A stretch of DNA of 64,000 nucleotides from an uncultured virus (IMG/VR IMGVR_UViG_3300006922_000015). Its lineage: Duplodnaviria > Heunggongvirae > Uroviricota > Caudoviricetes. The notes beneath the pieces are model-generated. The model saw only the letters and a program-made list of their open reading frames with translations, did not search any database and was not told the DNA's origin. Made by a program: the position numbers and the translations under genes. This document shows, in pieces, positions 5,300-30,000 of the stretch (position 1 is its first letter; each line of letters starts with the position of its first letter). Where the stretch lies: IMG/VR virus record IMGVR_UViG_3300006922_000015. The stretch is one strand, 5' to 3'.

Positions 5300-5300
5300 T

Positions 5301-5515: not shown

Positions 5516-5683
5516 ATGGAAAGTATTCATATAGATTTGTCAGAGCATGAGATGGATGTAGTTCTGAATGCATTAGAGATTGCGGTCAATAATGCTGACG
5601 AGTATGACAGTGGTGAGTATGAGGAAGTATTGTTTGGCGTACAGCGAAAGCTTGACGAACAGTATGAGCTTGATGTAGAATAG
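5516..5683 (+). CDS. Small acidic hypothetical protein (55 aa, MESIHIDLSEHEMD...)
   Basis: Read manually: ATG 5516 to TAG 5681-5683. Confidence 0.65.
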   Translation: MESIHIDLSEHEMDVVLNALEIAVNNADEYDSGEYEEVLFGVQRKLDEQYELDVE

Positions 5684-5702
5684 TAGTTTACCACTAGTAA
5701 AA

Positions 5703-5939: not shown

Positions 5940-6082
5940 AGGTAGGAGTTCAGATTGGAGAGAATAGCGAGATGATCTTTGATAGTTATGATGAAGCAAT
6001 GGATTACATTGAAGTTGTCATACCAGAGGTAGAATCGTTAAATATAAGTACCGATGACATTAAGGTAAAGTATTATGGCTAA
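5936..6082 (+). CDS. Small hypothetical protein (48 aa, MKVGVQIGENSE...)
   Basis: ATGA overlap with the glutaredoxin stop; TAA 6080-6082 overlaps the next gene's start. Confidence 0.6.
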   Translation: MKVGVQIGENSEMIFDSYDEAMDYIEVVIPEVESLNISTDDIKVKYYG

Positions 6083-7467: not shown

Positions 7468-7773
7468 ATGAGAGCTGCTGGTAGGATCGGAGATGTTTAT
7501 ATAAACAGGTGTACTACACCAATACAGGGCACAGGTGCTCCAACTGTTTTTATGGAACAACTTGCTGCCAGTAGAATTGGTGATCGGACTATTCCTTATC
7601 AGGAAATAGTTCCCTGTCCGAAATGTTGTAAGACTTTTAAAGCAACTGTTCTTTCTGGATCCAAGAAGGTATTTTCTCAGGGACTGGCGCAGGAAGCAAT
7701 TGCAGATAAGGCATTAGGTATTACTGGATCATTTCCTTTACTTAAAGGCGCTAAAACAGTATATGTAATATGA
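7468..7773 (+). CDS. PAAR-like spike-tip protein (T4 gp5.4-like)
   Basis: AAGRIGD / AASRIGD / EAIAD repeats with G..TVF, GSKKVF and GAKTVY strands; Cys-rich; 101 aa. Confidence 0.8.
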   Translation: MRAAGRIGDVYINRCTTPIQGTGAPTVFMEQLAASRIGDRTIPYQEIVPCPKCCKTFKATVLSGSKKVFSQGLAQEAIADKALGITGSFPLLKGAKTVYVI

Positions 7774-12092: not shown

Positions 12093-12534
12093 AATTGAAG
12101 AGCATATTAAAGAGTGGATTGGTAAAATTTCTGAGTTCAGACCAGAACTAAACAATTTTGCAGTCTGCCCTTTCTCTTCAACAGCAACTTACAAGATTAT
12201 TGAAGTGCCTATTGACGATATCATGCCTTTAACTGGGTATGATGTCGTCATTTTTGTTGTTGAAGACTATTTGGATGTCAATGCTATTCAAATGTGGTGT
12301 GAAATTTACAATACCATCTACCCTGAATACATTTTTTTGGAGGATTGCGCTTATTCTCATACCTTCATCAATGGTATTCAGACAAATAATGCAAAATATA
12401 ACTTGCTATTGTGTCAAAGTAAACAAAAACTACGTCAAAGTCGTGAAATTTTAGTAAAAAATGGATATTACCATCATTGGAGTGACAAAATGTTAGAAGA
12501 AATTCTTGGAGATGATTACGAGATAGTAAAATGA
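12085..12534 (+). CDS. Conserved cyanophage hypothetical protein
   Basis: 149 aa; LNNFAVCPF and R..L...GYY..W motifs. Confidence 0.75.
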   Translation: MSEIEEHIKEWIGKISEFRPELNNFAVCPFSSTATYKIIEVPIDDIMPLTGYDVVIFVVEDYLDVNAIQMWCEIYNTIYPEYIFLEDCAYSHTFINGIQTNNAKYNLLLCQSKQKLRQSREILVKNGYYHHWSDKMLEEILGDDYEIVK

Positions 12535-13130
12535 CTGAAATTATCCCCATTTTTCCTACTCTTATTGTCAAAAATGATACTAATCCTGCTTTTGGGCGAA
12601 TAGAAGAGTCATTTTTAAATTATGCATACTCGGAAATGGCATCTAGTCCGGGTGTTCTGAAATCAAATAAAGGCGGTTGGCAATCAGTGTCAACACTTAA
12701 GGATAGAGAGGACTTTATCCCATATTCTCAATTTTTATTAGATCAATCACATATAGCTTTAGGTAAATTATTCACGTATAATACTAAATTAGAACTTCTC
12801 AGTTGTTGGTTTAATTGTAATCGTGATGATAATGGAAATGAATGGCATATTCATCCATCTGCTGATGTTGCTGGATGCTTATGGTTAAAGACTACAGAAA
12901 ATTCGGGACCATTATCTTTTATGAATCCTCATCAATATGATCATTATTTGTGGCATGAAAAATGCAAATCAATTATGAAAGAAAAATATGCATTTGATGG
13001 AAATCTTTTTATTAAACCTATTGCAGGTACAATAATTTTATTTCCACCAAACACATTTCATAAGGTAATGCCTAATGATACTGATGAAGAAAGAATGTCC
13101 ATAGCCTTTAATTTGAGGATAAAGATGTAA
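12531..13130 (+). CDS. Putative 2OG-Fe(II) oxygenase (TIGR02466-like)
   Basis: IFPT start, SN.GGWQS, W.N......N..HIH, ILFP...H.V.PN...ER.SIAFN. Confidence 0.85.
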   Translation: MTEIIPIFPTLIVKNDTNPAFGRIEESFLNYAYSEMASSPGVLKSNKGGWQSVSTLKDREDFIPYSQFLLDQSHIALGKLFTYNTKLELLSCWFNCNRDDNGNEWHIHPSADVAGCLWLKTTENSGPLSFMNPHQYDHYLWHEKCKSIMKEKYAFDGNLFIKPIAGTIILFPPNTFHKVMPNDTDEERMSIAFNLRIKM

Positions 13131-13184: not shown

Positions 13185-13589
13185 ATGGCATTAAAAGCAT
13201 CAAGATCCTATAAGGACTTGAGTTTCACATTTAAAACCAACCCATTACGGAAGGATTTAAACCTTTTGAAGGATGAAAATGCGATTAAGAGATCACTCCT
13301 TAATCTTTTTTCTTACAGGAAGGGTGAAAAGTTTTTTAATGCTAGTTTTGGTAGTGGAATTCCTGAATTGTTATTTGATCCGTTTGATTTTGTTACTGCT
13401 GGATCAATAAAAACTGAAATAGAAAATCTGATTACATTATATGAACCAAGAATTAACCTTATTGAGGTAGTTTTGGATTTGAATGAAGATCAATATGAGT
13501 ATGATATTCAAGTAATTTATAGTATTCCTGATACAGATCCTCAAATCTTTACTACTTCATTAACATTAACGTCATCATCAAAGATATAA
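13185..13589 (+). CDS. g25: Baseplate wedge subunit gp25
   Basis: KDLSFTF..NP...D....KDENAIKRS..NL....GE..F...FGS, YEPRI; directly upstream of gp6. Confidence 0.92.
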   Translation: MALKASRSYKDLSFTFKTNPLRKDLNLLKDENAIKRSLLNLFSYRKGEKFFNASFGSGIPELLFDPFDFVTAGSIKTEIENLITLYEPRINLIEVVLDLNEDQYEYDIQVIYSIPDTDPQIFTTSLTLTSSSKI

Positions 13590-13592: not shown

Positions 13593-15443
13593 ATGGCATT
13601 CGCACAAGTTAGTTCCCTAGATTACGCTGATATCAAATCTGCCTTAGTTGATTACCTGAGGCGAAATACTGATTTCACAGATTACGACTTTGAAGGATCA
13701 ACACTATCTTCTATTGTTGACCTCTTAGCATACAACACTTATTATACTGCCTTCAATACTACGATGGCAGTTAATGAGAGTTTTTTGGCATCTGCCTCTT
13801 TAAGAGACAATATCGTAAAAGTTGCCAAACAACTTGGATATAGTCCAAAGTCAACAACGTCAGCAACAGCATTTCTTAAATTAAAAGTTGATTTTAGTAG
13901 TGTTGCTGCAGTTGACCAAAGATTAGTGCCATCATTCCTTACTCTCAAGAAAGGTAACTGTTTTATTTCATCAAATCCAGAAAATAGAAACGAAACATAC
14001 CAATTTTCTATTTTAGAAGATGTTGTATCTCCGGTAACGAATAATATTGGATATATTTCAAATGTTTCATCGGATCAATTGCAAGTAACCGAAGGAATTT
14101 ACTTAAATTTTAGTTATGTCGTAGATAATACAATTCCCAATCAAAAATTTATCATTCCTACTGCTAATGTAGACACTGAAACCATTAAAGTAGTAGTAAG
14201 AGAAAATGCTGCGGCGTCAAAAACTGAAATTTTCACAAAAGTTGAAAATATCCTTGATGTGACTGCAGTCGATAAAGTATTCTTCGTTCAGGAGACTGAT
14301 GATGCAAGATATGAATTAATTTTTGGTGATGATGTACTGGGTAAGAAAGTTACTGACGGACAGATTATCGAAGTTACATATATTGCATCATCTGGTAAAA
14401 CAGCAAACAAATTAAAGAATTTTGTTTTCTCTGGTGAAATTTATGACGAAAATTTGAATCGAGTTTTGACGGGTATTACAACAACAGTTGTAGTTGGTTC
14501 TGAAGGTGGTGATGATATTGAAGATAATGAAGTAATTAAAAAAAATGCTCCTGCATTCTATTCTTCACAGAATAGAGCAGTGACATTAGAAGATTATAAG
14601 GTAATTACTCAAAGACTTTACTCAGCAATTGCTGATATTATTGTATATGGTGGCGAAAGTGAAGAACCACCTGAGTATGGTCGTGTAAAAATTGCCATCA
14701 AACCAAAATTTAGCGATATTTTAAGTAATTCTACTAAAAGAGATATTATTACTAAACTTAAGAAGTATACAGTTGCTTCTGTTACTCCAATTATTGTTGA
14801 TCCATCGATTGTTGATGTAGTTTTAAACACTAAAATTTATTATAGGCAAACTGAAACTAATTTAACATCCGAGCAAATTAGAAACGTTGTAATTCAAAAT
14901 TTAACTGAATATAGAGATACTAATAATATTAGTAAATTTGGTGGAGTGATTAGAAAAAGTAAAGTAACTACAGTTGTTGATGCTTCCGAAAGTTCAATTA
15001 CAGGTAATGTTACTGATTTTGTATTGAGGAAAAAATTAGTACCAGCACTTAATACTACAGCTCAATACTTGTTATGCTATGTAAATCAATTCCAAACATC
15101 ATGTGCTGGAAAAACCACTATCACAAGTTCCAAATTTAGAACTGTAAATTATCCAAATGATGATTCATTCATGGAAAATACTGAGGATGGTGCAATTAGA
15201 ATATATACTATTGATTCTGCTACTGCATCTAAAAAAATTCTAGTTGAAAATGCAGGAACTGTTGATTTTATTAATGGCAAAGTGAATATAAATTCAATTC
15301 AATTTGTTAGTGGCAGCAATGAAGATAATGAAATCTTTATTAGCGCCATTCCCTTTAATGATGATGTGAGTGCAGTGAGAGAAGTATACTTAAATCTCTC
15401 AATAGAAGATAGCATTCTCCAGGTATTCCAAGAAACAGCATAA
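13593..15443 (+). CDS. g6: Baseplate wedge subunit gp6
   Basis: FTDYDFEGS.LS...DLLAYNTYY, QNRAVT..DY, PPEYG.V.I.IKP motifs; 616 aa. Confidence 0.95.
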   Translation: MAFAQVSSLDYADIKSALVDYLRRNTDFTDYDFEGSTLSSIVDLLAYNTYYTAFNTTMAVNESFLASASLRDNIVKVAKQLGYSPKSTTSATAFLKLKVDFSSVAAVDQRLVPSFLTLKKGNCFISSNPENRNETYQFSILEDVVSPVTNNIGYISNVSSDQLQVTEGIYLNFSYVVDNTIPNQKFIIPTANVDTETIKVVVRENAAASKTEIFTKVENILDVTAVDKVFFVQETDDARYELIFGDDVLGKKVTDGQIIEVTYIASSGKTANKLKNFVFSGEIYDENLNRVLTGITTTVVVGSEGGDDIEDNEVIKKNAPAFYSSQNRAVTLEDYKVITQRLYSAIADIIVYGGESEEPPEYGRVKIAIKPKFSDILSNSTKRDIITKLKKYTVASVTPIIVDPSIVDVVLNTKIYYRQTETNLTSEQIRNVVIQNLTEYRDTNNISKFGGVIRKSKVTTVVDASESSITGNVTDFVLRKKLVPALNTTAQYLLCYVNQFQTSCAGKTTITSSKFRTVNYPNDDSFMENTEDGAIRIYTIDSATASKKILVENAGTVDFINGKVNINSIQFVSGSNEDNEIFISAIPFNDDVSAVREVYLNLSIEDSILQVFQETA

Positions 15444-15444: not shown

Positions 15445-18400
15445 ATGAATTTTAACAAGTTAACTATCTCAGACTTAGTAGATCAGCAACTGCCAGAGTT
15501 TGTTGTCAATGAATTTCCTACATTTGTAAAATTCTTTGAGGAATACTATAAATCATTAGAATTATCCGGTGGTCTACTTGATATCACCCATAATTTCCTT
15601 GATTATAAAAATATTGATAATTTAAGAAAATATAATCTTGTTACAACTTATAAATTACAGCAAGCAATTTCTGCTACTGACGAAAGCATTGTTTTAGACA
15701 GTCTTGATGGACTTCCTTCTGAGAATGGTCTAGTTAGTATAGGTGATGAGATTATTCTCTATGAGACCGTCAATTTATCGTCTAGAACGCTCCTAAATTG
15801 TAAAAGGGGATACTCGGCAACAACTAAGTTTGATAGCACTGCTACGACTGTAGAGAGCACTGTAGCAGCATCTCATCAATCAGACGATACTGTAACAAAT
15901 TTATCAAATCTTGTTCTATTTCTTATCTTAAGAAATTACGAACATCAATATCTTGCTGGGTTCCCATTCGAGAATATTTCTTCTAGTATCGACAAAGATA
16001 CCTTACTTAGAAATATTAAAGATTTCTATAATTACAAGGGAACTGATGTTTCCATTGAATTTTTATTCAGAGCTTTATTTGATGAAGAGGTTACAGTAAA
16101 ATATCCAAAGGATTATGTAATCAAATCTTCTTATTCAGATTTTACTGTTGATGACATTATCAAAGTAGAGGCAATTGAAGGAAATCCATATGATCTTATC
16201 GGAAATCGATTAAATCAAAGTGATGCTAGTGGAGTATTGACAAGTAGTGCTGTAATTGACGAAATTTTAATTAATAATATTTCAAATTATGCTTCTGCTA
16301 ATAAAAATGTTTATGAGTGTAGATTAAACGTTCTTAATCAGCAGTTTTTTCAAATTCCAAGGGAAACTCTTCTTAGGGGAGTTTTGTCGTCTACAGATTC
16401 TGTAATTACTGTTGATAGTACAATTGGATTTCCTCAGTTAAATGGAATTATCCAAATTGATGATGAAGTTATTACTTATCGATATAAAACGTTCAATCAA
16501 TTTATTGATTGTGGAAGAGGTACTTATAATACAGTTGCTGTCAATCATGCCGACTTAAGTGATGTCAAAACCACAGAATTTCTTTTTGGATATAGTGATG
16601 GTATAGAACTTGACTCAAATAAAGTAACTATGAGGTTACTTGGTGTTTCTTCTAGTGTTATTATTAATGATGGCGCTGCTTATTTTGAGGAAGCTGAAAA
16701 AGTAGAGTTATCACTTGATGGGGATATTGATTCAAGGCAACAATTTACAACATGGATCAAAAATGAAACCGGAACTCTGTCAAGTAGTTCTGATGTTCAA
16801 ATAAACAATAATGTCAGTACTATTACCACTGAAATATCAAATATTTACAAAGATGAAAATTATGCTTATATTGTCTCGTCTGGACTTCCCGTACATCCAA
16901 TCGGAGACTTCATTGGAGCTGGTTTTAATGTAAATAATCAAAATCTTTTAAAAACAATTCCACTTTCGACTGAAAAAAATACTCAAACTCAATTTACTGG
17001 AAATAAAGCAGTTGGTTTGTTTATTAATGGTGTAGAAGCATTTAGTTCTCAAGATTATGAAGATGTTTCATTCGGTAATATTGAAAGTGTTGAAATTATC
17101 CAAAAAGGATTTGGTTTCGAGACTGATATTCAACCAGTATTCAGAGTAGCAAATTCTTCCGGCACAGGGGCTACATTTAATGCGGATATTATAGATGGAA
17201 AAGTATTTTCAGTATCAGTAGTAAATGGTGGAAATGGATATATTGAAAATCAATCATTAGAAGTTACATATGGATTTGACGCTACTGCAACAATTGCCAA
17301 TGATTTAGATATCATTAATGGTTCTATTAAAACAATTACAGTAACCAATCCCGGTCAAGATTATGTTGCTACACCTAATGTAGAAATTATCGATAGTACT
17401 GGTAAGGGAACGGGAGCTTTTGCTATCGCTGAAGTAACTAATAATCAGTTGACTGGTGTAATTGTTCTTAATGGAGGTGTTGATTATAGTGATAAAGATA
17501 CTATCACCGTGAGGATTGTTTCCAAAGGTAGTGGTGTTGTTGCTAATGCTATCGTTAAAAAATGGTCTTTTGATAGAGTATTTAAGACAAAAAATTCTAT
17601 TGATGTAAATGGTAACTGGGCACCTGCACAAACAATTAAATCTGATACTGGTAACGGTTATCTATATCCAAGTAGAAATATTGCGTACAATCTTCAATAT
17701 GCATATCCATCAAATCCAAAACTTCTTAGACATTCGTTATCTGATAACGTCCAGGGTGTAAATGCTAACTATGATGAAGTAACATCTGGGTTTGTTCACT
17801 CTCCTATTTTAGGATGGGCGTATGATGGTAATCCCATTTATGGTCCTTATGGATATCTTACTCCAACCGTTCCTGCTAATGGTATTTCTAGGCAAACTAG
17901 TTCTTATGTATTAAAAACCACTGCAGAAGTTACTAGACCTAATGTAGTAAAATATCCTTTAGGTTCTTTTGTAAATGACTATGAGTTCATTCAAGGATCT
18001 GGAAGTCTTGATATCAATAATGGTCGTTTTTGCATCACTCCAGAATATCCTGATGGAAGATATTGTTACTTTCTCACAGTAGACAGTTTTGGTTCTGGTG
18101 TTTATCCATATATTCTCGGAAAGACATATCATTCTGTTCCAGCAGAAAATAATTTCAATATTGAGTTTAATCAGCAGAACGAAAATAACTTACCCAAAGA
18201 AGCAAGAAGAATTAGAAGTTCTGCTACTCCAAGTAAAGGTTTTGATGCTATTTTATCAGTATCTAATGTTGAAAGAGGAACTATTGATGATTTTGTTGTT
18301 TACGAAAGCGAAAATGTATTCAAAGTATTAGATGCTTTGTATATTGACAATGATGACACCGAAGGTTCTAGAGCATTCGGTAGAGTTGCATCAGTTAAAG

Positions 18401-21400
18401 GTGAAAATGTAACTACATTTTCATATGAAGTTACTTCGGGATCCACTATTCCATCAACAAATGGAATTCCTGATGCCCCATGGCCTGCTGTAATTAGTGC
18501 CCCTCAATATACAGATACCAAATATGATGTAACTGTAGAAACTTCAGAACCACATTTATTATCTGATAATGATGTAGTTACATTGGCATTAGATAGAGAT
18601 GCCATATCATTAACAAAAACTTTTGATGTAAGAGTATCTAATTACCAGACAGTAAATTATATACCTCCTGTTATTGAAAGTTTATTGGTTGTTGATGTTG
18701 CTTTCAACCAAACCACTATTAACGTAGATAATTCTGATGATTATAGAGAAAACGATTATTTAAAAGTTAATGATGAAATTTTAAAAATTGTTTCGATTGA
18801 TTATAATTCAGATCAAATTACTGTCGAAAGAACTCAGTTTGGAACTCCATTAAGATTACATGCAGCTACTAACAAAGTAGAACTTTTTATACCTGATGAT
18901 CAACCAGATTATAGATTAACTGTAGGGTCGGCAATCACAAGTAGTGGTGTATCAGGGACGATTTATAATATTGATAAAGCGAATTCGCTTATTGAAGTAA
19001 GAGTTGGTTCGGGCACGCTTACAAATTCTAGTGTTCTGTTAGACACATCTTCACCAACAGGAAGAACTATTAATGTCAGTAGTGTAAGTGATACTGAGAT
19101 TTATTGGGAATTCGATCCTACTGGAACTAACACTCATTATGTTCGTGATTTAGAGTTCAAATTAATGAGGGGAACTGAGTATATTTTTGACTTAAGTGAT
19201 GGAAGTATTTTTGGTAATAGCATTATTTTCTCCGAAGATTCAGCAAATATCAATACTCTTACTGGAGTAACAAGTGTAGGAACTCCAGGTACTTCTGGAG
19301 CATCAGTAACTATTACGAAAGATGCATTATTAAATCTTGATGTTTCTAGAGTATACTATTACGAACAAAATGGTCAAATTCTTAATAATAAAACATTTTT
19401 ATCAGTAACCACATTTCCTGATGGTGTTAAAACAATTAAAGTTGTTGACGATAACAAATTTAAGTTTGTTATAGACGAACAACCCGAACAAAGTACTTAC
19501 ACAAATTTAATTTCGTATACAACAACTTCACAAACTAGTATTGGTGCAATTAATACTGTCGCGGTAGTTGATGGCGGGGAAGGTTATAAAAAACTGCCAA
19601 ATATTTTTGGAGTTACCCATACAGAATTAGATGCGGCAAAATTAGCATATTCGATTACTGGAGGTTCATTCAATGACACATTCAGTGTTGTAAATCCGGG
19701 AAATAGATATTCAAATAATACAAAAATTATTGTTAATACTCTCACTGGTAGTGGAGCAGTTTTAACACCAACGATTGTGGGTGGTAAAATTATTTCAGTA
19801 AAGGTTGATGTTGCTGGTAATGGATATGATGAAAATGATACTATCTCAGTAATTGATACTGGTGCTAAAATTTTCCCAGTCAGTAATAGTATTGGTAGAA
19901 TTAAAACAATTAGATTTAATAATAGTGGAAGTCAGTTTAATCCTGATAGAACATTTTCTAAATCTTTAGTATTCAAACAAAAAATAATTATTACTGGTAT
20001 TACTGGTGGTGTCTATAAACTTTCCGAAAATATAACATCTTCTGGTGGATTATCTGCTAAGATTGACAAAATAAGACAAATTGGTGTTGATATTTTCTTG
20101 CTTGATTTGAAAATCAACTCAGGAATTCCTAAAGTAGGTGATACTATCACTGGTTCTATTTTACAGGTAACATCTACAATTTATTCTGTAACAAATCCCG
20201 ATATTATCGGAACTATTTCTGGATTTATCTCAAAAGTCGGTTTCTTTGATTCTGATTTAGGTAAGATTAGTGCTTCATCGCAAAAAATTACTGATAGTTA
20301 TTACTATCAAGATTTCTCTTATGTCATCAGAAGTACAAAATCTCTGAGTGATTATAAGAAATATGTTGATGAAACAACACACCCACTTGGATTTAAATTA
20401 TTCGGTGAGGTATCTGTAGAAAATGATGTTGACTTTGCAGATACTGTAACAGGAAATGCATTTAGTATCGGTCTTGCTGATGATCCTACTGCCAATGAAG
20501 TTATTATTACATTACCTAATGTAAATGTAGAGTCAGATATTGTTTTCAAAAAATATGAAATTTCCACACTTAATACAGCTAATATAAAAGCTTATCGTGG
20601 CATAGGAGCTGCTCGTCTTAATTTCTTAGATAACCAAATTGAAGCAGTGCAAATAGCAGATCTTTCTGCAGATCTTGATGCTAGCACTCAAACATATACT
20701 TTGACTACACAGGATGGCAATTTTCCGTTAGATACTTCCAATACTTCTATTCTTCTTTCATTGAATGATGTATTCCAAGAACCATTCCAAACATCTACTG
20801 TAACTGGAATTAGTTACTCTGGTGGAATTGCGACTGTTACTACTGCTGCAGATCATAATTTAGCAACTACATCAGTAGGTCAAACATATCCAAATCAAAA
20901 ATATATTCATATTTCTGGTGTAACCAATACTGGCAATTTAAATTTTAATGACCAGTTTGAAGTATATGATGTACCATCAACAACAGAAATTAGAGTTCTG
21001 TTTAATAACCCCAATGGTTTTCTGACGAACAATGATCCTGCAGTTTGTGCTGATGTTAAATCAACTATTGATAACTTGGTTACTATTCTAACATATTATT
21101 TAAATAATCCATCTGATGCACTTCCTACAAATAACACAGGCGTTTGGTTAGATGAAGAATCATCAACCGTTGTTAGTGCTAATAGACACAGAGATGGTGC
21201 TAATTTAATTGATGTCAATAGATTTGAAATTATCGATAGATCTAATGCAGAAATTTCCTTACAGTATCCTGATTTTTACTATCCAAATGATACTCAAACA
21301 TCTGGATATAGCAGACAGAAAGATTCTTATAGATTAATTCAACAAAACCGCAAAGAATTAATTGATAGAGGTGCTGCTGAAATTGCAGTTCAGTATCCTG

Positions 21401-24400
21401 ATTTTGTATATCCTGGTGATCCTGCTACTGCAAGTGATTATCGCTTCAAGGATGCTTACAGACTCATTCAGCAGAATAGAACTGAGATTATTGATAATGC
21501 ATATGCTGTAGTAGCAGCAAATCCTCCTGTTCCAGCTCCGGCAGATCTTGAGAACAAATGTAAGCGTGATATTGGATTATTCATTGATTATACATCAATT
21601 GATCTTGTCAATGGTGGTAATGAGTATGCGCGTAAGTTTGCCCTTCAGTATTTTGATGATGCTGGAAATCCTCTCACAAATGGATTACTTAATGAGGAAG
21701 TAGCATCAGTTGCTGCATTTACTGCCGCTAAGGATAATATGATCCTTGCGTTTACTAATCAACTTACAATTACTGATACTACAATCACTGTAGACCCTGC
21801 TGGTGCTCCTTTATGTGCTAACGTAACATCTGCTATTACAGTTCTTGCTGGTATTGTAAATGATGCTATCACAGCAGGATCTATTACTGGTCTTCCAGCA
21901 GAAACTATCGGTTCTGATACTACTGGCGAAGCAAAATGTAAGCGTGATCTTGGAATGTTTATTGATGCCGTATCACTAGATGTTCATACTGGCGGTAATG
22001 TATACGCTATTAAATTCCTTAAAAAATATTTCAACGCTCAAGGAACATCATTTATCGCAAATGGTCTTTCCGGTGAAATTCTAGAATCTAATACTGCATT
22101 CAATAAAGTAAGAGATCTGATGAAGCAAGCAATTGTAAATCAACTTCTCGTTAAGGATCTTACTATTACTGCTGGTAATGCTAGTTACTGGGGAGATGCA
22201 GTTGGAACACCGACAAATGTAACCTATGATGCTAATACTGGCATCTCAGTTATCACGATTGCTAATCACGGATTATCTAATGGTGAAGATGTTAAGATCA
22301 GAGATAATGGTCTGACATTTACCTGTGAAATGGATGGGAATGTTAAAGAAAAATCTTATCCAAGACTTCTTGATGGTAATTCAAATACAGCAATGCCTGT
22401 TTCTAATGTTACTACAGATACATTTGAAATTAATGTTGGCACTTCACCAATTGTAAATTTCAACGTTAGTGATGCTACTTACACTCCTTCTACTGGAGAT
22501 GTAGAAATTAACATTGGCGCTCACACATTACGTGCAGGAACATCTATTAAACTTGCTGACGAAGCACTCACATTCACTTGCGATTTCGATAACAATCAAA
22601 CTCAGCATAGTTATCCCAAGACTGCTATCTTAAGTGAAACAATCACAGATGCTTTCTATGATCCCACACTTGGTATTCTTACTGTTACTGTTAAAAATCA
22701 TGGATGGGAAAATGGAGATCTTATTAAATTTGATAATAACTCCTTAGTCTTTACTTGTGGAATGGATGGAAATGCTACTAATCACAGTTATCCTCGCGCT
22801 GGTATCGATCCTTATGCAGACAAGTGGATCCCCATTTATGCTGTAACCGGCAATACTTTTAAAGTTGCAGTAGGAGTTTCATCTAATACTTCTACACATA
22901 CATTTATCAGTGCAACTGAAGATGGTCTGAAGAAGAAAAAGGATAAGACATACGATACCGCTGTAAATATTGTCACAGTCACGGCAGATACAATTACGAT
23001 CAACGTAGGTAGTTCAACAGATACATCAGCACATACATTTATTTCTGCTGTCCCAAATGCTGTTATTTCTGGTGGTGATTATCCACATACATTTGTAAGA
23101 GCAGTTACTGATGCTATTGTCAAGACACAAGTTAGTTCTCCTGTTTCAAATAACAGTGATGGCGCATGTGCTGACATTAAATCAAATATTGACACTCTCG
23201 TTGAAATTGTAACAGTATACTTAACCCAAGGATCGTTGAATTTTCCAAATGCTTTACCAGCACAATCTGTGAGAGTTCCTTCTGCTGGTGAAGCCAAATG
23301 TAAAAGGGACTTAGGTTTAATTATTGATGCTGTTATTGGTGATATGAGAACAGGTGGTAATTCTAATATCAGAAGTTCTACTCAAAAATATTTGGATGGA
23401 TCTGCTTTATTGAGTAATGGTCTTGCTGGTGAATTAAATGAATCAATCACTGCTTTTGAAAAAGCAAGAGATATGATGAAACTTGCAATTGCTAACCAAC
23501 TTTATATTCAAGATTTAACTATCTTACCTGATTTCCTTACTACTTCTGGAACCATTGAGGCATCGAGTCTTACCAATTCTGTTTTTACTGAAGGTCAGTT
23601 TGAATATTCTAATTCAATACTTAAACTGTATGAAACTGTAAGAGAAGGAACTGTATTCCATAGTACTTTCTTTAAATTTGTTTCTGCTGGAGATGATGCT
23701 CGATATTCATATAAAGTAAAAAATATCTTGTTTGATGGTGTCAGTACAGACTATCCTTTATATAAAATTAATGGTTCTAATGTTACTACAGAAGCAGATG
23801 AAAATCTATTAGTGTTTATTGATGGTGTTCTTCAACTTTATGGAGAATCTTATACCATTGATAGAAGTGTAAATCCAAATATAATTAAATTTACCAGTGT
23901 AATAGAAAAAGACAGACACTTCTTCTCCTATACATTCAGTAAATATAAAGTCTTAAATAATTTTGCAGATAAATTTAATTCGAGTGCAAAATCATTTGAA
24001 TTTGCGTTTGGTGAAGACAATATTCTTCCTCCAGATGATCATCAAATGTTGGTGATGCTTGATGGTGTTCCTCAAGTAGAAGGATCTTCATATACTATTG
24101 TTGATAACGTAATTACATTTACTGAAGCACCCACTACAGGGAAAAAATGTTTTGTATTATATTTCTATGGTAAAGTATTTGAAAAGACTATTTCAATCTG
24201 GAATGGTGAAGTATTTGAAAACTTAGAATATATTGGAGATAATAGTCCCGAAGGATGTCAGTATTTAACTAAGGTTGCAAATACTGGAGATATTATCAAA
24301 CCTGGCGATAAAATCAGGATTGATGGAGAATCTGTAAAAGAAATTATCAAAATTGAAAAAAGGGCACTTAAGAATACTGACAACTTAGTTTATACAGCAT

Positions 24401-25422
24401 TGGTATATACCGATAATTCATATATTCGCGGTAAAAATGCTGTTGCTAATGCTGTAATAGATCCTAGTGCTACTACTGTTTCAGGTGGTAATCCGGTTGC
24501 TATTGAGGGAACTATAGGTGTTGAATTTGGAATGGGTATTCCTACAGTATTTGCTCCAGGACCAATTACCAGTATTAATATAACAAATCCTGGTCTTGAG
24601 TATGACGTAGCTCCTATCATTTTATTCAAAACAGAATGCGATAATCCAGGAACTGGTGCAGAAGCTATCGCTCAAATTACTAATGGCAAAGTAACTAATG
24701 TCATTATCACAAATGGTGGTTCTGGATATACAGAAGCACCTGAATTAATTTTTGCTAAAAAGTATGAGATCATCAGACCTCATACACCACTGTTTATGAG
24801 AAATGACACAGTTGTTGATATTTCTTTAGCAAATGCATTATTGCCTGGGTTTAATGTTGTAAATGAAAGTGGATTGGAAGATATCATTCCTCTAGTTTCA
24901 ACTCAACTCACCACTTCACGCACTAATGTAATTCAAGTTGAACGTAAAACTAACCGAGATACATCACGTCCTGGACTTTCTTATGTTCTGGAGACATTTG
25001 ATAATAACAAATTCTCGTATGAACCTCAAGAACTTAATGATCCATTGGCATCTTACCTCGGTACTGGTGTTACTATTGAAATGATTAACAGATATGCCCC
25101 TGCTCTTACAGTTGGTGATTTTACTACACATAGAGGAGCTACGCAAGGAGCGACTGAACCAGCAATTATCAACATTGGACCAGAAGCATATGTAGCATAT
25201 GGTCTTACACTGAATGGTAATATCAATGATACTGTTACTACAATTACAGTTACTGGCGATGTTTCTAATTTCCCTCCAGCGGGATATTTGGAGTTTGGAG
25301 ATGAAATTGTTGAATATACTTCAATTTCAGGACAAGATTTTACTGTTGTCCGAGGAGTAAAGGGAACTACAGCAACATCACATACAGATACAGATTATTT
25401 GAGACTCGCTTGGCGAGGGTGA
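15445..25422 (+). CDS. g7: Baseplate wedge initiator gp7, greatly enlarged by inserted domains
   Basis: Between g6 and g8; N-terminal QLPEFV...F..F..EYY and IKDFY..KGT..S..FLFR.LF; DSYYYQDFSYVIRS...HPLGF motif; YHYH-like, phycobiliprotein-like and FCCH-like inserts. Confidence 0.88.
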   Translation: MNFNKLTISDLVDQQLPEFVVNEFPTFVKFFEEYYKSLELSGGLLDITHNFLDYKNIDNLRKYNLVTTYKLQQAISATDESIVLDSLDGLPSENGLVSIGDEIILYETVNLSSRTLLNCKRGYSATTKFDSTATTVESTVAASHQSDDTVTNLSNLVLFLILRNYEHQYLAGFPFENISSSIDKDTLLRNIKDFYNYKGTDVSIEFLFRALFDEEVTVKYPKDYVIKSSYSDFTVDDIIKVEAIEGNPYDLIGNRLNQSDASGVLTSSAVIDEILINNISNYASANKNVYECRLNVLNQQFFQIPRETLLRGVLSSTDSVITVDSTIGFPQLNGIIQIDDEVITYRYKTFNQFIDCGRGTYNTVAVNHADLSDVKTTEFLFGYSDGIELDSNKVTMRLLGVSSSVIINDGAAYFEEAEKVELSLDGDIDSRQQFTTWIKNETGTLSSSSDVQINNNVSTITTEISNIYKDENYAYIVSSGLPVHPIGDFIGAGFNVNNQNLLKTIPLSTEKNTQTQFTGNKAVGLFINGVEAFSSQDYEDVSFGNIESVEIIQKGFGFETDIQPVFRVANSSGTGATFNADIIDGKVFSVSVVNGGNGYIENQSLEVTYGFDATATIANDLDIINGSIKTITVTNPGQDYVATPNVEIIDSTGKGTGAFAIAEVTNNQLTGVIVLNGGVDYSDKDTITVRIVSKGSGVVANAIVKKWSFDRVFKTKNSIDVNGNWAPAQTIKSDTGNGYLYPSRNIAYNLQYAYPSNPKLLRHSLSDNVQGVNANYDEVTSGFVHSPILGWAYDGNPIYGPYGYLTPTVPANGISRQTSSYVLKTTAEVTRPNVVKYPLGSFVNDYEFIQGSGSLDINNGRFCITPEYPDGRYCYFLTVDSFGSGVYPYILGKTYHSVPAENNFNIEFNQQNENNLPKEARRIRSSATPSKGFDAILSVSNVERGTIDDFVVYESENVFKVLDALYIDNDDTEGSRAFGRVASVKGENVTTFSYEVTSGSTIPSTNGIPDAPWPAVISAPQYTDTKYDVTVETSEPHLLSDNDVVTLALDRDAISLTKTFDVRVSNYQTVNYIPPVIESLLVVDVAFNQTTINVDNSDDYRENDYLKVNDEILKIVSIDYNSDQITVERTQFGTPLRLHAATNKVELFIPDDQPDYRLTVGSAITSSGVSGTIYNIDKANSLIEVRVGSGTLTNSSVLLDTSSPTGRTINVSSVSDTEIYWEFDPTGTNTHYVRDLEFKLMRGTEYIFDLSDGSIFGNSIIFSEDSANINTLTGVTSVGTPGTSGASVTITKDALLNLDVSRVYYYEQNGQILNNKTFLSVTTFPDGVKTIKVVDDNKFKFVIDEQPEQSTYTNLISYTTTSQTSIGAINTVAVVDGGEGYKKLPNIFGVTHTELDAAKLAYSITGGSFNDTFSVVNPGNRYSNNTKIIVNTLTGSGAVLTPTIVGGKIISVKVDVAGNGYDENDTISVIDTGAKIFPVSNSIGRIKTIRFNNSGSQFNPDRTFSKSLVFKQKIIITGITGGVYKLSENITSSGGLSAKIDKIRQIGVDIFLLDLKINSGIPKVGDTITGSILQVTSTIYSVTNPDIIGTISGFISKVGFFDSDLGKISASSQKITDSYYYQDFSYVIRSTKSLSDYKKYVDETTHPLGFKLFGEVSVENDVDFADTVTGNAFSIGLADDPTANEVIITLPNVNVESDIVFKKYEISTLNTANIKAYRGIGAARLNFLDNQIEAVQIADLSADLDASTQTYTLTTQDGNFPLDTSNTSILLSLNDVFQEPFQTSTVTGISYSGGIATVTTAADHNLATTSVGQTYPNQKYIHISGVTNTGNLNFNDQFEVYDVPSTTEIRVLFNNPNGFLTNNDPAVCADVKSTIDNLVTILTYYLNNPSDALPTNNTGVWLDEESSTVVSANRHRDGANLIDVNRFEIIDRSNAEISLQYPDFYYPNDTQTSGYSRQKDSYRLIQQNRKELIDRGAAEIAVQYPDFVYPGDPATASDYRFKDAYRLIQQNRTEIIDNAYAVVAANPPVPAPADLENKCKRDIGLFIDYTSIDLVNGGNEYARKFALQYFDDAGNPLTNGLLNEEVASVAAFTAAKDNMILAFTNQLTITDTTITVDPAGAPLCANVTSAITVLAGIVNDAITAGSITGLPAETIGSDTTGEAKCKRDLGMFIDAVSLDVHTGGNVYAIKFLKKYFNAQGTSFIANGLSGEILESNTAFNKVRDLMKQAIVNQLLVKDLTITAGNASYWGDAVGTPTNVTYDANTGISVITIANHGLSNGEDVKIRDNGLTFTCEMDGNVKEKSYPRLLDGNSNTAMPVSNVTTDTFEINVGTSPIVNFNVSDATYTPSTGDVEINIGAHTLRAGTSIKLADEALTFTCDFDNNQTQHSYPKTAILSETITDAFYDPTLGILTVTVKNHGWENGDLIKFDNNSLVFTCGMDGNATNHSYPRAGIDPYADKWIPIYAVTGNTFKVAVGVSSNTSTHTFISATEDGLKKKKDKTYDTAVNIVTVTADTITINVGSSTDTSAHTFISAVPNAVISGGDYPHTFVRAVTDAIVKTQVSSPVSNNSDGACADIKSNIDTLVEIVTVYLTQGSLNFPNALPAQSVRVPSAGEAKCKRDLGLIIDAVIGDMRTGGNSNIRSSTQKYLDGSALLSNGLAGELNESITAFEKARDMMKLAIANQLYIQDLTILPDFLTTSGTIEASSLTNSVFTEGQFEYSNSILKLYETVREGTVFHSTFFKFVSAGDDARYSYKVKNILFDGVSTDYPLYKINGSNVTTEADENLLVFIDGVLQLYGESYTIDRSVNPNIIKFTSVIEKDRHFFSYTFSKYKVLNNFADKFNSSAKSFEFAFGEDNILPPDDHQMLVMLDGVPQVEGSSYTIVDNVITFTEAPTTGKKCFVLYFYGKVFEKTISIWNGEVFENLEYIGDNSPEGCQYLTKVANTGDIIKPGDKIRIDGESVKEIIKIEKRALKNTDNLVYTALVYTDNSYIRGKNAVANAVIDPSATTVSGGNPVAIEGTIGVEFGMGIPTVFAPGPITSINITNPGLEYDVAPIILFKTECDNPGTGAEAIAQITNGKVTNVIITNGGSGYTEAPELIFAKKYEIIRPHTPLFMRNDTVVDISLANALLPGFNVVNESGLEDIIPLVSTQLTTSRTNVIQVERKTNRDTSRPGLSYVLETFDNNKFSYEPQELNDPLASYLGTGVTIEMINRYAPALTVGDFTTHRGATQGATEPAIINIGPEAYVAYGLTLNGNINDTVTTITVTGDVSNFPPAGYLEFGDEIVEYTSISGQDFTVVRGVKGTTATSHTDTDYLRLAWRG

Positions 25423-25470: not shown

Positions 25471-27042
25471 ATGCCAGCACTTATTTCTGAACAGTTTAGA
25501 ATTCATAATGCCCAACAGTTTGAAGAAGCATTTTCCGAGGCAGCACCCACGAACATGTATTTCTTCATGGGCAGACCCCAAGACTGGGATACCACTGCTG
25601 TAGCTGGTGCGACTTCATATGTCGGTCAAGCTTCAGGTAGTCAGCACAGTGGATCTTATCTCGCAACTCCTGATGAGAACAATCCACCCACGCCTATCGA
25701 CAGTTTCAATTACGAGAAAGAAATTTTTGATGATATGATTTCTCTCAAGAGAATTCAATCGTCAGATGTCAGATTAGTTGTCAATAGACACAACTGGACA
25801 TCAGGAACGACATATTCAATGTATCGTTCTAACTACAGCGCAGACTTCAAGGCAAACTCTGCCGGTGAGAATGCACCACATATTTACTCAGCAAAATATT
25901 ATGTTGTAAGTGACTATAAGGTTTACAAGTGTATCTACAATGGATCATCACCTGCTAACCCTAATGGTATTGCTTCTACTGTTGCCCCTAGCGGAACTGG
26001 AACTACTATCTTCACAACTGCTGATACTTACAAGTGGAAGTTCCTTTACAGCATTGGAACCGATGATGTAATTAAATTCTACACAACCTCTTATGCACCC
26101 GTTCCCGCTAACTGGGGCGTCGGAACTGCTGGAGACCCCGCCAATGGCGTTGATGTTAAAGCAGCTGCTGTAGACGGTGCTATCGACACTGTGGTGATTA
26201 ACACAGGTGGTACAGGATATACTGATAATGCTTCGACTGGTTATACTAATGTTCCCATCCGTGGAGACTGGGCGCAGAACGGTGGCGTTCAAGCACTTGC
26301 GACAGTTAAAGTTAGTAGCGGTGCTGTAAGTGAAGTAACAATCACCACTCCCGGATCTGGTTATACTTATGGTTACATTAATGTAAACTCAACTGAAATC
26401 TCTGGTATCGGTGCTCCTGGAACAGAAGCAGTTTTAGAAGTTATCATTCCTCCTGCAGGCGGACATGGTTTCAACATCTACAAGGAGCTTGGCACTAAGC
26501 GTGTCATGATCAACTCCAGAGTTCAGTATGATGAGAATCTTGAGTTCCCCGTTGATACTGATTTCAGAAGAATTGGTGTTCTTCGCAATCCTGAAGAATC
26601 TGGTGGTGGCGTTGCTTCTGGTTCTACCTATAATGGTTTGACCGCTATTAAGTTCCCATCTGCAACAGTTGCTTCATTTAATATTGACGAAACTGTAACG
26701 CAAACTACAACTGGCGCTACTGGTAAAGTCGTCTCTTGGGATTCTGCTACTAAAATTCTTAAAGTTTATCAGAGCAGCTACGAGCACATTGTTACCGGTA
26801 ACCAGGGTGGAGATTTAACTCCTTTCTCTGGTTCAAATGCAATCACTGGAGCACTTTCATCATCTGTTGAAACTCCAGATACTACTTACAGTTTGACTAC
26901 TTCAAATCTAACTTTTGCTAATGGTTATTCAGCACCAGAAATTAAAAAATATACTGGTGACATCATTTATGTTGAGAACAGAAGAACTGTTTCTCGTTCT
27001 ATTGATCAAATTGAAGATGTCAAATTGGTCGTAGAATTCTAA
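25471..27042 (+). CDS. g8: Baseplate wedge subunit gp8
   Basis: MPALISEQFRI.NA, VYKC..NG, Y.WKFLY, PP.GGHG, GDIIYVENR...R..DQ.EDVKLVVEF. Confidence 0.93.
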   Translation: MPALISEQFRIHNAQQFEEAFSEAAPTNMYFFMGRPQDWDTTAVAGATSYVGQASGSQHSGSYLATPDENNPPTPIDSFNYEKEIFDDMISLKRIQSSDVRLVVNRHNWTSGTTYSMYRSNYSADFKANSAGENAPHIYSAKYYVVSDYKVYKCIYNGSSPANPNGIASTVAPSGTGTTIFTTADTYKWKFLYSIGTDDVIKFYTTSYAPVPANWGVGTAGDPANGVDVKAAAVDGAIDTVVINTGGTGYTDNASTGYTNVPIRGDWAQNGGVQALATVKVSSGAVSEVTITTPGSGYTYGYINVNSTEISGIGAPGTEAVLEVIIPPAGGHGFNIYKELGTKRVMINSRVQYDENLEFPVDTDFRRIGVLRNPEESGGGVASGSTYNGLTAIKFPSATVASFNIDETVTQTTTGATGKVVSWDSATKILKVYQSSYEHIVTGNQGGDLTPFSGSNAITGALSSSVETPDTTYSLTTSNLTFANGYSAPEIKKYTGDIIYVENRRTVSRSIDQIEDVKLVVEF

Positions 27043-27084: not shown

Positions 27085-30000
27085 ATGCCCCAGAGTACTA
27101 ATCTAAACAAAGCTCCATACTTTGATGATTTTGATCCGAATAGTAACTTTTATAGAGTTCTTTTCAGACCTGGATACTCAATTCAATCTAGGGAGTTAAC
27201 AACTCTACAATCTATTCTACAAAATCAAGTCGAAAGTCTCGCTAAAGCAAACTTTAGACAGGGATCTGTTGTTGTTCCTGGGGAAGTTATTGTAGATAAG
27301 CAGTATAGTTATGTGAAGGTAAGTTCCTTCACAAATAACTTACAAATTACCGATTATATCGGTAAGAAAATGACGGGTAATATTTCTGGTGTAGTTGCTA
27401 CGGTATTAAATGCCACAGCTTCCACATCAACAGATTCTCCTACTTTGTTTGTTAAGTATGAAACTGGTGGTAATAGTAATACTGCAGTTACATTTAGTGA
27501 AGGTGAGACCATCACTTCTAATTCACCAGGAGCTCCTACAGCAATTGTTGGTATTACTGGAAATGTGAAACCTACTCAAAGTGCTGCCATGGGGTATGGC
27601 TCTGCTGTTTCAGTTAGAGAAGGTATCTATTTTATCAATGGATCTTTGGTAAAAAATGAGAATGCTACTATACTTTTAGACAAGTATGGTAATACTCCTA
27701 CTTATAAAGTAGGTTTTATTGTATCAGAGCAACTTATTACTCCAGAAGAGGACTTCTCTCTGCTTGATAACGCTCAAGGTTATTCTAACTATGCTGCTCC
27801 TGGCGCTCACAGACTTAAGTTATCTGTAACGTTAGTAACAAGACCTATTAACTTAGAAGCACAAAAAGATTTTGTAGAGTTACTTCAAGTAAGAAATGGA
27901 AATGTCGATGCTACTGTAGATCTTGTTTCTCCTAATGGTCTTATTGAAGATATTCTTGCTAGAAGAACATTTGACGAATCCGGTGATTATGTCGTCAAAG
28001 AGTTTCTATTAAACTTTAAAGAAAGTTTAGCAACTGCAGATAATAATGGTGTATACTCTGCATCTCAAGGTGGATCAGAAGGTAAATTTGTAGCAGTCAT
28101 TGAACCTGGAAAGGCATATGTAAAAGGATATGAAATTGAAACTACATCAGTAAGATATGTTGAAATTGATAAAGCAAGAACAACTGAAACCCAAGAAAAT
28201 AATTCACTGAGTCCTGGCGAAGGATCCAACTTCACAGTAACTAATCTTTTATCATTCCCTGATGTTGAAAGTAAGTCTTCGTCATTGACTGGTACTGGTT
28301 TACTTAGCACTAATGCTTATCAGGAACTTAAATTATATGATAAGTATACTGACGTTGTATTTGGAGAAACAACTGCTAATCTCGACGGCACTGCACCAGA
28401 AGCAGAAAATTTCTGGATGGTTACAGTCGAGACTTTATCTTCTGCAGATGTAGTTGCATTAAATAGCAACTGGAGTAATGGTGCTCTTTCTGGTCAAGTT
28501 AGATACTACCAATTAAGCAGCAATTTAACTGAGGTAGTTGCTATTCTTACTAAACCATCATCAGTTGGATTTAGTATTGGTGAAAATATCACCATGGGTG
28601 CTGTTTCTGGAACATTGAAAACAGCAGAAAGACTTACGACACCTTATATTGGTATTGGTAAAACTAAATCCATTAAATTTCTAACCGGAACTGCCACAAA
28701 TGGAGTTTATGATAAATCATGCCTTCATAAACTTGGTTTGTTTGGAGTAGAATACTTTACTAAAATTTTATGCCAAAATCCACTAAATTTCTCGGTAGGT
28801 AAATTTATTACCGGACAGACAAGCGGTGCTAGAGGTATTGTAGAGCAATTACTCACTGATACAAATGAATTAATTTTATCCAGAGTTTCCGGTAGTTTTG
28901 CTGATGGGGAAACTTTACTTTCAGAGCAAGATGGAACTACAACACCATATAATTTTGTAGAACCAAAAGGTTCTTTAGCGTCACTTAAAATGATATCTTT
29001 TGGCGCGACATATGCCGCCAATACAGACATCACTGCAATCAATGTTAATGGTGTAAATAGACTTACTGAAATTGGATCTTCAAATGTCACTATTTTAAAT
29101 AATGAAATTAGATCTATTGTGATCACAGATGCTGCAAGAGCAGCAATGGGAACATTTACGACTGCTCCCACTATAGAAATTGTTGACCCAACTGGATCTG
29201 GATGTGTTGTTTCTGCAGATTTGAATGATAGTACTATCGTAAATTATGATTCATCTTTTGTAAAGAGTTTCTTTAATGCTACGACAGGAAATAATTTTGC
29301 AGGTGATATTTACAGTAATGATCTTTCATATTATATCGACAATGGAGCTACATTTAGCGCCAATCCAGGAAACTATTTCATTACTGCAGATAACCTTGGT
29401 TCCAGACCAGATGTAGATCTAGTAAAAGGAGATGTTATTGCTGTTGTTGATAATTCTGGTGTTACCAGAAAATACTTAGTAAAATATTCAGTACCTGATG
29501 GTACTGGAGGTGCTGCCAAAATCTTTATCTATGGTGCTGTTCTTTCAGGTTTTGCAACTAAGAAAATTTCTAGAATTCGTTCAAAACTTTTTGGTGCCGA
29601 ATCCAATACTTTACTATATCCACTACCAAATAAGCATGTGAAAACAATGGTGTTGGATCCCGATAACACCAATATTGATTATACCGTACAGCAAGAATTC
29701 TTAGGAAATCTCGATAATAGTGGTTCTATCAGTATCAGCGTAGGAACGAACGAACAGTTCCTTGGATACACATCAGAAAATTATATAATGTCAAACCCAA
29801 ATACAGGTGAATTACTTGATCTCGGTAATAGTGATCCCAATAGTCCTAAAGTATCTTTGGGTAATAGTGCTCAGAGTATCACACTTGATCTTGGTGCCAC
29901 ATTTGCTGACATTCCGTTTAAGTTAATTGCTCCTGTAAGAAAGGCAGATACTTCTCCGAAGACTAAAATTCTTGTAGAAAATCAAGAATACAATGTATCT

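Follow-up and report, generated by a model that had tools for sequence, protein, structure and literature searches.

A stretch of 64,000 nucleotides (nt) from an uncultured virus of the Caudoviricetes (IMG/VR record IMGVR_UViG_3300006922_000015), referred to here in its entirety as the window, contains a 3325-amino-acid (aa) open reading frame (ORF; 15445..25422, + strand) that resembles the giant baseplate wedge protein gp7 and holds all of the phycobiliprotein (PBP)-like parts of the window. Our analysis leaves little doubt that this gp7 holds three domains descended from a cyanobacterial PBP, each consisting of a globin-like core without the N-terminal X and Y helices. Could a virus particle also carry the pigment that such proteins bind? 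The homology, the fold, and the cysteine sites are established as far as computation allows, the site in helix H being a probable one that is read from alignment ranges. Attachment of bilins to these cysteines is plausible, and we would give it about an even chance.

Homology and predicted fold of the gp7 domains

A previous reading of the sequence alone (the original prediction) had listed four recurring motifs in gp7, and we recovered every one of them at the same residues and nucleotides. KCKRD occurs three times, with its cysteine at residues 2039 (nt 21559), 2165 (nt 21937), and 2619 (nt 23299), and in each case exactly 14 residues separate RD from GG. Three CA(D/N)(V/I) helices carry Cys1868 (nt 21046), Cys2124 (nt 21814), and Cys2575 (nt 23167); three D..LI..NR.E(I/L)ID helices start at nt 21184, 21313, and 21442; and three NGL...AF...(K/R)D.M helices lie at aa 2079, 2206, and 2658. 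The YPDF.YP motif said to follow the NR.E.ID helices is present after the first two, whereas the third runs into ...AANPPVP. Judged by sequence, the motif pattern is not due to chance, because a profile (A1) made from 47 such units in other viral contigs matched three units of the window at E values of 9e-46, 4e-51, and 3e-47 and found no match in the 31 other ORFs of the window. The same profile gave three partial matches, which correspond to the leading helices. Host genes were fetched to check the sequences that the original prediction had given for CpcA and CpcB: the CpcA genes read KC.RDIGYYLRMVTYCLVAGG, with the same 14-residue spacing to GG, and the CpcB genes read DAVNRITSNASTIV and GDCSALMSEI.

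The proposal that the gp7 domains are homologous to PBPs was borne out by Pfam, by a profile search of the PDB, by hhalign, and by structure matching. The PBP family profile PF00502, which the original prediction had singled out for comparison, scored 32.8 bits over aa 1864-2262 (cut-off, 22.2; E value, 8e-8), which places this region within the family; over the whole 3325-aa gp7 the score was 21.6 bits, just below the cut-off. Single-sequence phmmer searches of the PDB returned weak matches (best E value, 0.15), 11 of the 13 being PBPs or the allophycocyanin-derived smURFP, and here helix B and the PDF..PG loop of the allophycocyanin-B alpha chain aligned to the phage B-2 helix. With the 47-unit profile, all 43 PDB matches at an E value of ≤10 were PBPs, the best being a C-phycocyanin alpha chain at 2.6e-5. 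hhalign aligned A1 to 21 CpcA sequences, drawn from cyanobacterial genomes by motif pattern, with a probability of 95.6% and an E value of 1.3e-8 over 82 columns from helix B to helix G (phage columns 31-128 on CpcA 48-135; identity, ∼23%), and revealed a 15-residue insertion, a helix, after GG in the phage unit. The innermost of the three domains (domain I) gave 95.1% and 3e-8 against CpcA. The match of the full domain to eight beta chains was weak (probability, 2.4%; E value, 0.02). CpcA is the best relative by sequence, and the two have K-C-x-R-D-I-G-Y and the 14-residue spacing to GG in common. A near-length search of a 5.8-billion-sequence database with the unit profile returned seven short fragments and no PBP at an E value of ≤0.01.

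Does the region also fold like a PBP? AlphaFold2 modeled domain I (aa 1994-2147), cut so that a B-type helix and E-F-G are followed by the next Cys-helix, with a pLDDT of 91.3 and a pTM of 0.88 (alignment A3, 25 rows). As the original prediction had anticipated for such a model, Foldseek returned a globin-like PBP fold, with 33 PDB matches at an E value of ≤1e-3 and TM scores of 0.60-0.72 over ∼155 columns; among the 39 rows listed, 38 were titled phycobiliprotein or phycobilisome and one was titled "bacterial fluorescent protein". VIA-align superposed the model on PBP beta chains with a Z score of 17.4 and a root mean square deviation (rmsd) of 2.2 Å, aligning 138 of the 154 residues. Z scores of ≥8 were obtained for 302 of 999 chains, and the best 50 rows were all beta-type chains, in which model residues 1 to 150 corresponded to chain residues 27-33 to 172-184. 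For the beta chains (CpcB, CpeB, and cryptophyte beta), Z ranged from 15.8 to 17.4 and rmsd from 2.2 to 2.6 Å, with 134-141 residues aligned. The predicted structure of domain I contains the globin-like core, that is, helices A/B, E, F, G, and H. The X/Y helices, which in PBPs join alpha to beta subunits, are missing: the structural alignments begin at chain residue 27-33, and what precedes each phage B helix is either a loop or a further B helix. Both the model and the point at which the alignments begin agree with the earlier description of globin-fold PBP domains devoid of the X/Y dimerization helices.

The first unit borders, in which the Cys-helix was followed by E-F-G (aa 2112-2244), had yielded a weaker model (pLDDT, 78.9; pTM, 0.54). 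Foldseek found nothing for it at an E value of ≤0.001, and VIA-align gave Z scores of 4.6-5.5 for 5 PBP chains among the 50 rows listed, the ApcE chains 4xxi_A and 7sc7_BD being among its weak matches. In that model the Cys-helix stood as the equivalent of helix B, an assignment that was dropped once the Cys-helix was placed behind E-F-G and the high pLDDT and Z score reported above were obtained. Because the re-cut model superposes on PBP beta chains, the Cys-helix is best read as helix H of the preceding E-F-G. A search of the ESM Atlas gave a best score of 0.76 and no useful lead.

Might a helical repeat have come to look like a PBP by chance or by convergence, with no common descent? The failure of the wrong-border model in Foldseek, its low Z scores for a few PBP chains among 50 listed helical bundles, and the modest single-sequence phmmer result would fit such an origin. 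Set against these, the Pfam gathering score was passed, the PDB profile matches were PBPs without exception, the hhalign probability was high, and nearly the whole of the model superposed on beta chains. As far as computation can do so, the profile, hhalign, Foldseek, and VIA-align results refute a chance resemblance, which we consider extremely improbable.

Predicted nested arrangement of the three domains

Three B-type helix pairs follow one another in the region, which also has three E-F-G modules and three Cys-helices, and this layout suggested nesting instead of beads on a string. The beta-rich stretch was omitted when we co-folded aa 1864-2244 with aa 2566-2698, for which we supplied our own alignments. 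The complex was predicted with an ipSAE of 0.83 (individual runs, 0.82, 0.84, and 0.83), compared to 0.00 for the best of three controls; contact agreement between runs was ≥90%, and the pLDDT of the partner was ≥78. In a benchmark that applies only roughly when own alignments are supplied, 116 of 157 solved complexes and 2 of 215 mismatched pairs scored this high; the pass may partly come from likeness to solved PBPs. The contacts with the lowest error join B-1 (residues 1915-1936) and the first Cys-helix (1875 and 1878) to E3 (2623-2642) and G3 (2673-2681), and the predicted interface also includes E2-G2 (2171-2231) and the CADI helix (2574-2600).

These predictions support an arrangement in which three complete domains are nested and one of them is circularly permuted. 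The three PBP-like domains of the original prediction are retained, whereas its tandem order gives way to nesting, which the evidence favors. All parts lie on the + strand. Domain I (21424..21885; aa 1994-2147), a complete PBP-fold core made up of B-3, E1, F1, G1, and H and carrying Cys2039 and Cys2124, would sit within the B-E loop of domain II. Domain II, in turn, would consist of B-2, domain I, E2-G2, a beta-rich insert, and the helix H that bears Cys2575, and would itself lie inside domain III. The A/B-type helix pair B-2 (21295..21405; aa 1951-1987; NRKELID...YPDF) gave a partial profile match and was assigned to the middle domain II by elimination; beyond residue 1961, B-2 is outside the interface with the C-terminal piece in the complex prediction. 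Helices E2-F2-G2 (21913..22155; aa 2157-2237) include Cys2165 and correspond to the unit matched at 4e-51. The beta-rich stretch (22177..23139; aa 2245-2565) would be an insertion in the G-H loop of domain II, a status that follows from the nesting model. It matched no Pfam family and contains three (L/V)(T/V)FTC(E/D/G)(M/F)D(G/N)N...SYP(R/K) repeats with one cysteine each (Cys2294, Cys2379, and Cys2438). The helix H given to domain II (23161..23241; aa 2573-2599) was assigned from its motif and from the predicted interface. We infer, and do not take from the listed contact pairs, both the pairing of this helix with E2-G2 and that of B-2 with domain II.

The outer domain III would comprise the helix H that bears Cys1868, B-1, domain II, and E3-G3, and would be circularly permuted in that its own helix H comes before its own helix B. 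Its helix H (21040..21120; aa 1866-1892) is recognized by its motif and by predicted contacts with E3 and G3; its A/B-type helix pair B-1 (21166..21276; aa 1908-1944; NRFEIID...YPDF) by a partial profile match and by contacts with the same two helices; and helices E3-F3-G3 (23275..23532; aa 2611-2696), which include Cys2619, by the profile match at 3e-47 and by contacts with B-1 and the first Cys-helix.

Cysteine sites, possible bilin attachment, and its alternatives

The KCxRD cysteines of the window (Cys2039, Cys2165, and Cys2619) fall at the place of Cys82/84 in PBPs, in helix E and followed by x-Arg-Asp. The profile search of the PDB and hhalign both align KCKRD to CpcA K83-C84-x-R86-D87, in agreement with the Cys84-type site originally proposed. 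Lys83, Arg86, and Asp87 of CpcA are the residues around Cys84 that contact the bilin in C-phycocyanin structures. CpcA has only this one bilin cysteine, whereas the phage domain has a second cysteine at a probable beta-type site. When VIA-align set the model against phycocyanin beta chains, model residues 1 to 150 were aligned to chain residues 30 to 172. From model Cys131 (gp7 Cys2124) to model residue 150 the distance is 19 residues, the same as from CpcB Cys153 to residue 172. Because these distances to the last aligned residue are equal, Cys2124 probably occupies the place of the beta-153/155 bilin cysteine, provided that helix H is ungapped; this placement comes from alignment ranges and not from a residue-level superposition. 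By architecture, Cys2575 and Cys1868 would take the same place in their own domains. Up to six cysteine sites per chain, as had been suggested, are consistent with three complete nested domains in the complex prediction.

Compared with the PBP beta subunits (CpcB, CpeB, and the cryptophyte chains; PF00502), the phage domain has the same globin-like core from residue ∼28-30 to the C terminus, the helix-E cysteine followed by x-Arg-Asp, and, behind a long G-H loop, a second cysteine at the start of helix H, which by alignment range probably corresponds to beta-153 of phycocyanin. It differs in that absence of the X/Y helices precludes alpha-beta pairing of the known kind, in that the phage domains are nested in a 3325-aa virion protein whereas beta chains are free-standing and ∼170 aa long, in its weak profile match (E value, 0.02) and its helix insert after GG, and in that the phage bilin is a proposed one. 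The missing X/Y helices, together with the placement of the domains within gp7, make their assembly into (alpha-beta)3 phycobilisome discs unlikely.

How well are these positions kept among relatives? A tblastn search with aa 1864-2262 matched 218 phage records, and all 218 are cyanophages by name (Synechococcus, 170; Cyanophage, 41; Prochlorococcus, 6; marine virus, 1). In profile searches of 20 isolate genomes, the domain was present in 15, with 1-12 matches each, and no match was found in P-SSM2, S-SM2, S-SSM7, S-TIM5, or the podovirus P-SSP7. The matches in P-SSM4, P-HM1, and P-HM2 fall within genes given as giant gp7 in the supplementary ORF table of Sullivan et al. 2010, and those in S-PM2, Syn1, and S-RSM4 fall in giant "short tail fiber" genes that adjoin gp12. 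Across genomes, including those of IMG/VR, copy number ranges from 1 to 19. The largest array that we found is in an IMG/VR genome (G005, locus L030; 135530-145642), where one 8077-aa frame has 19 unit matches. In the S-PM2 RefSeq record (L164, NC_006820 160000-178000), 16 tRNA features lie inside the 11.3-kb "short tail fiber" coding sequence under the same locus tag, which looks like a shift of coordinates in the record.

Conservation was assessed in 177 units that the profile had detected in 34 IMG/VR loci and in 20 stretches of isolate genomes; many of these units are close relatives, so that the counts overstate independence. At the E-helix bilin position, Cys was retained in 172/177 units, Asp in 176/176, Arg in 160/177, and Lys in 152/177, and pairwise identity among units is 24-50%. 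C.[DN][VI] was found in 60 of the 63 helices between successive units. The 15 full-region homologs retained Cys2039 in 15/15, Cys2124 in 14/15, Cys2165 in 14/14, and Cys1868 in 13/13 ungapped rows. A lack of conservation of the cysteines in homologs, which would have spoken against the original prediction, was not what we observed. Three further residues are close to invariant in the phage units and absent from PBPs (in unit numbering, Asp68 in 171/174, Asn74 in 172/174, and Tyr84 in 167/168).

If the sites are used as in PBPs, bilins would be bound by thioether links during gp7 folding in the infected cell. Host lyases of the S type or E/F type could act on the E-helix cysteine (Lys-Cys-x-Arg-Asp), or its bilin could attach autocatalytically as in ApcE. 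ApcE has its PBP fold, interrupted by a loop, in a large multidomain protein and attaches bilin without a lyase; unlike the phage domains, which belong to a baseplate and have a second cysteine site, it is a cellular protein of the phycobilisome core with one such domain and no nesting. For the helix-H cysteine, at the probable beta-153/155 place, the enzyme could be a T-type lyase, for instance phage CpeT, and up to six bilins per gp7 chain might in this way come to lie on the baseplate. Whether the gp7 domains carry thioether-bound bilins, up to six per chain, through lyases or autocatalysis is in our judgment evenly balanced.

The distribution of cpeT (PF06206) is consistent with such a route. 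The gene was found in 12 of 15 domain-bearing and in 0 of 5 domain-lacking isolate genomes (one-sided Fisher test, 0.0036; 0.015 for the 17 T4-like genomes; 0.018 with P-HM1 and P-HM2 merged), tests that ignore phylogeny, and the three T4-like phages without either feature may represent one clade. In S-PM2, Syn1, and S-RSM4, cpeT precedes the giant PBP-like fiber gene by 0.7-1.5 kb on the same strand, and in one IMG/VR genome (G004) the nearest matched unit, in a giant ORF, lies ∼1.6 kb downstream of cpeT. The nearest long relative of the window (G002, 71% complete) has both the domain and cpeT. Sullivan et al. 2010 (PMC3037559) counted 12 cpeT-bearing genomes among their 16, compared to 11 of the same set here, and described the role of phage cpeT as one that "remains unresolved". 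T-type lyases act on the beta-153/155 cysteine, according to PMC10452541, and this is the probable place of the phage helix-H cysteine. The co-occurrence envisaged in the original prediction was found for cpeT and was not found for ho1 or for pebS/pcyA. Bilin reductases (FDBR) are encoded by 7 of the 20 isolates (5/15 domain-bearing versus 2/5 domain-lacking genomes) and haem oxygenase (HO) by 4 of the 20 (2/15 versus 2/5), with no association with the domain in either case.

Together with this last result, several observations weigh against bilin attachment. No cpeT was found in the window (20 ORFs scanned). Domain-bearing P-SSM7, S-ShM2, and S-SKS1 have no cpeT over threshold, with subthreshold candidates in P-SSM7 and S-ShM2, and the same holds for a 95%-complete IMG/VR genome that has the domain (G003). 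P-SSM2 (NC_006883) and S-SSM7 (NC_015287) have haem oxygenase and bilin reductase with neither domain nor cpeT, so phage bilin synthesis has at least one role unrelated to the virion domain. The match claimed for the second bilin cysteine (beta-155) appears in structure ranges and not in sequence profiles: the segment from helix G to the Cys-helix aligned to CpcB C termini, Cys pairing with Cys, with an hhalign probability of 1% and a P value of 0.054, which is not significant, and since profile probabilities are 1-2.4%, this match depends on structure ranges. The Arg position is Asp in 9 and Thr in 6 of the 177 units, mostly in divergent units of Syn9, S-SM1, P-RSM4, P-SSM7, and P-HM2. We know of no report of colored or fluorescent cyanophage particles, no search having been aimed at such particles, or of bilin on a virion or recombinant domain. 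Finally, the giant proteins of S-PM2 (clusters 734 and 830) have no proteomics entry in the ORF table of Sullivan et al. 2010, and with that column empty the case for a place in the virion is made by annotation and by homology to gp7.

Could the domain instead be a pigment-free relic? A captured host PBP gene may have been put to new use as a stiff helical element decorating the baseplate, its repeats multiplied and nested, with the conserved Cys, Arg, and Asp serving folding, packing between subunits, or stability. Such a history would account for a domain that sits within structural proteins and is repeated 1 to 19 times in a genome, as fiber decoration modules often are, for the absence of the X/Y helices, for the helix inserted after GG, for the loss of Arg in divergent units, for the lack of co-occurrence with bilin-synthesis genes, and for the absence of any pigmented virion from the literature searched. 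It would not lead one to expect that units with as little as 24% identity keep both cysteines and the Asp at the frequencies given above. A disulfide within the domain is an unlikely reason for keeping them, the two bilin cysteine sites being far apart in PBP beta chains, and the co-occurrence and synteny of cpeT would be left unexplained. We regard a pigment-free relic as a real possibility, though a doubtful one.

A further alternative is that the fold was kept for a new function, the pocket and cysteines binding something other than a bilin (a metal, a different cofactor, or a molecule of the host surface) or forming disulfides between subunits, in host recognition or virion stabilization. 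The phage-specific residues Asp68, Asn74, and Tyr84 agree with this, as do the location of gp7 and the giant fibers at the host-contact end of the tail and the variation of copy number and carrier protein among phages, which is also seen in receptor-binding modules. Nothing in our data points to another ligand; the conserved residues are exactly the ones that contact bilin in C-phycocyanin structures; the domain is confined to cyanophages in all 218 records; and it tracks a bilin lyase gene. We therefore consider a new function quite unlikely.

Carrier protein, gene neighborhood, and light-dependent adsorption

By its sequence and setting, the 3325-aa ORF encodes the counterpart of gp7 in an uncultured T4-like cyanomyovirus, because it is flanked by gp6 and gp8 and has an N-terminal Baseplate_wedge match; the carrier had been named correctly at the outset. 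Pfam places Baseplate_wedge (PF23786) at aa 181-225 (36 bits; cut-off, 27) and YHYH (PF14240) at aa 777-880. The gp6 baseplate wedge gene (13593..15443, + strand), directly upstream, matched annotated cyanophage "baseplate wedge" genes in tblastn with a best identity of 43%, and the gp8-like baseplate wedge gene (25471..27042, + strand), directly downstream, matched phrog_438, a baseplate wedge subunit, at an E value of 6e-155. T4 gp7 likewise is encoded between gp6 and gp8. The phage protein is more than three times as long as T4 gp7, which is not known to have large YHYH, beta-rich, or PBP-like insertions. The large terminase of the window has its best match in Synechococcus phage S-BM3 (76.7% identity). 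Megablast of nt 20500-24000 against phage records gave no match, and the closest record to the window is a 32.8-kb fragment.

A gp25-like gene (13185-13589) lies upstream of gp6, and a 2OG-Fe(II) oxygenase gene (12531..13130, + strand; phrog_81 and Pfam 2OG-FeII_Oxy_5) lies three genes upstream of gp7, with gp25 and gp6 between them. The window has a second 2OG-Fe(II) oxygenase gene at 645-1349. Genes of this type also lie between cpeT and the giant PBP-like fiber gene, directly upstream of the latter, in S-PM2 (L164 5308-5889) and Syn1 (L260 3073-3645). The oxygenase could be a recurring neighbor of PBP-like genes or could be there by coincidence, there being several such genes per phage.

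Four further giant structural ORFs occupy 27085-34659 (2524 aa), 39724-47019 (2431 aa), 47287-52953 (1888 aa), and 7770-11804 (1344 aa). They match mostly PHROGs of unknown function, and the profile search found no PBP-like unit in any of them. The 1344-aa protein has tail-protein and Hoc-like matches; directly upstream of it, a 101-aa ORF (7468-7773) has a PAAR-motif match just below the Pfam cut-off (25.1 bits versus 27). At 2001-6000, G+C content is 0.47, compared to 0.32-0.39 over most of the window, and the ORFs there are all short; they include Kyano_Gp96 (PF23790) at 3426-3782 and DUF7249 at 4306-4710. A tRNA-Leu (1842-1928) stands just before this stretch and a tRNA-Met (5227-5299) within it, and Rfam, run on the window, returned a single tRNA and nothing else.

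Might a pigmented baseplate respond to light? Rearrangement of T4 gp7 accompanies the triggering of its baseplate. If the gp7 and giant-fiber domains are loaded with bilins, light absorbed by these could alter gp7 or the baseplate and gate adsorption or firing. Liu et al. 2019 (PMC6628666) report no adsorption of P-HM1 and P-HM2 in the dark, light-dependent adsorption of S-PM2 that is independent of host photosynthesis, reduced adsorption of P-SSM2 in the dark, and adsorption of P-SSP7 and P-GSP1 in the dark. Light-dependent adsorption of several cyanomyoviruses is likewise described in a review (PMC2984593), according to which it is unclear what phages gain from their bilin genes. We found six domain matches each in P-HM1 and P-HM2, nine in S-PM2, and none in P-SSM2 or P-SSP7, so that five of five phages fit the pattern; five phages amount to about four independent lineages, one of them a podovirus, which counts against giving the correlation much weight, and we treat it as a lead. 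That bilin-loaded domains form a virion photoreceptor, with adsorption or firing only in light, is speculative and in our estimation unlikely.

We found no description of PBP-like virion domains in the open full-text literature, including a 2023 study on PBP origins (PMC10151467), subscription papers lying mostly outside that search. Two long-standing puzzles of marine cyanophage biology become testable through these domains: the carriage of cpeT by many cyanomyoviruses without the rest of the host operon, and adsorption that in some cyanophages occurs only in light yet is independent of host photosynthesis. A PBP-fold domain in the virion that keeps both putative pigment sites is a concrete candidate substrate for CpeT and a candidate light sensor. 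If the photoreceptor reading is true, it would account for why S-PM2, P-HM1, and P-HM2 depend on light to adsorb and would supply phage CpeT with its missing substrate. If bilins are attached, this would be, to our knowledge, the first virus particle with a light-absorbing cofactor, and the domains, being compact, monomeric, and devoid of X/Y helices, could be of use as small fluorescent tags. Should pigment be absent, the gp7 domains are still a clear case of a host photosynthesis gene made into a virion building block, nested, as the predictions suggest, three deep.

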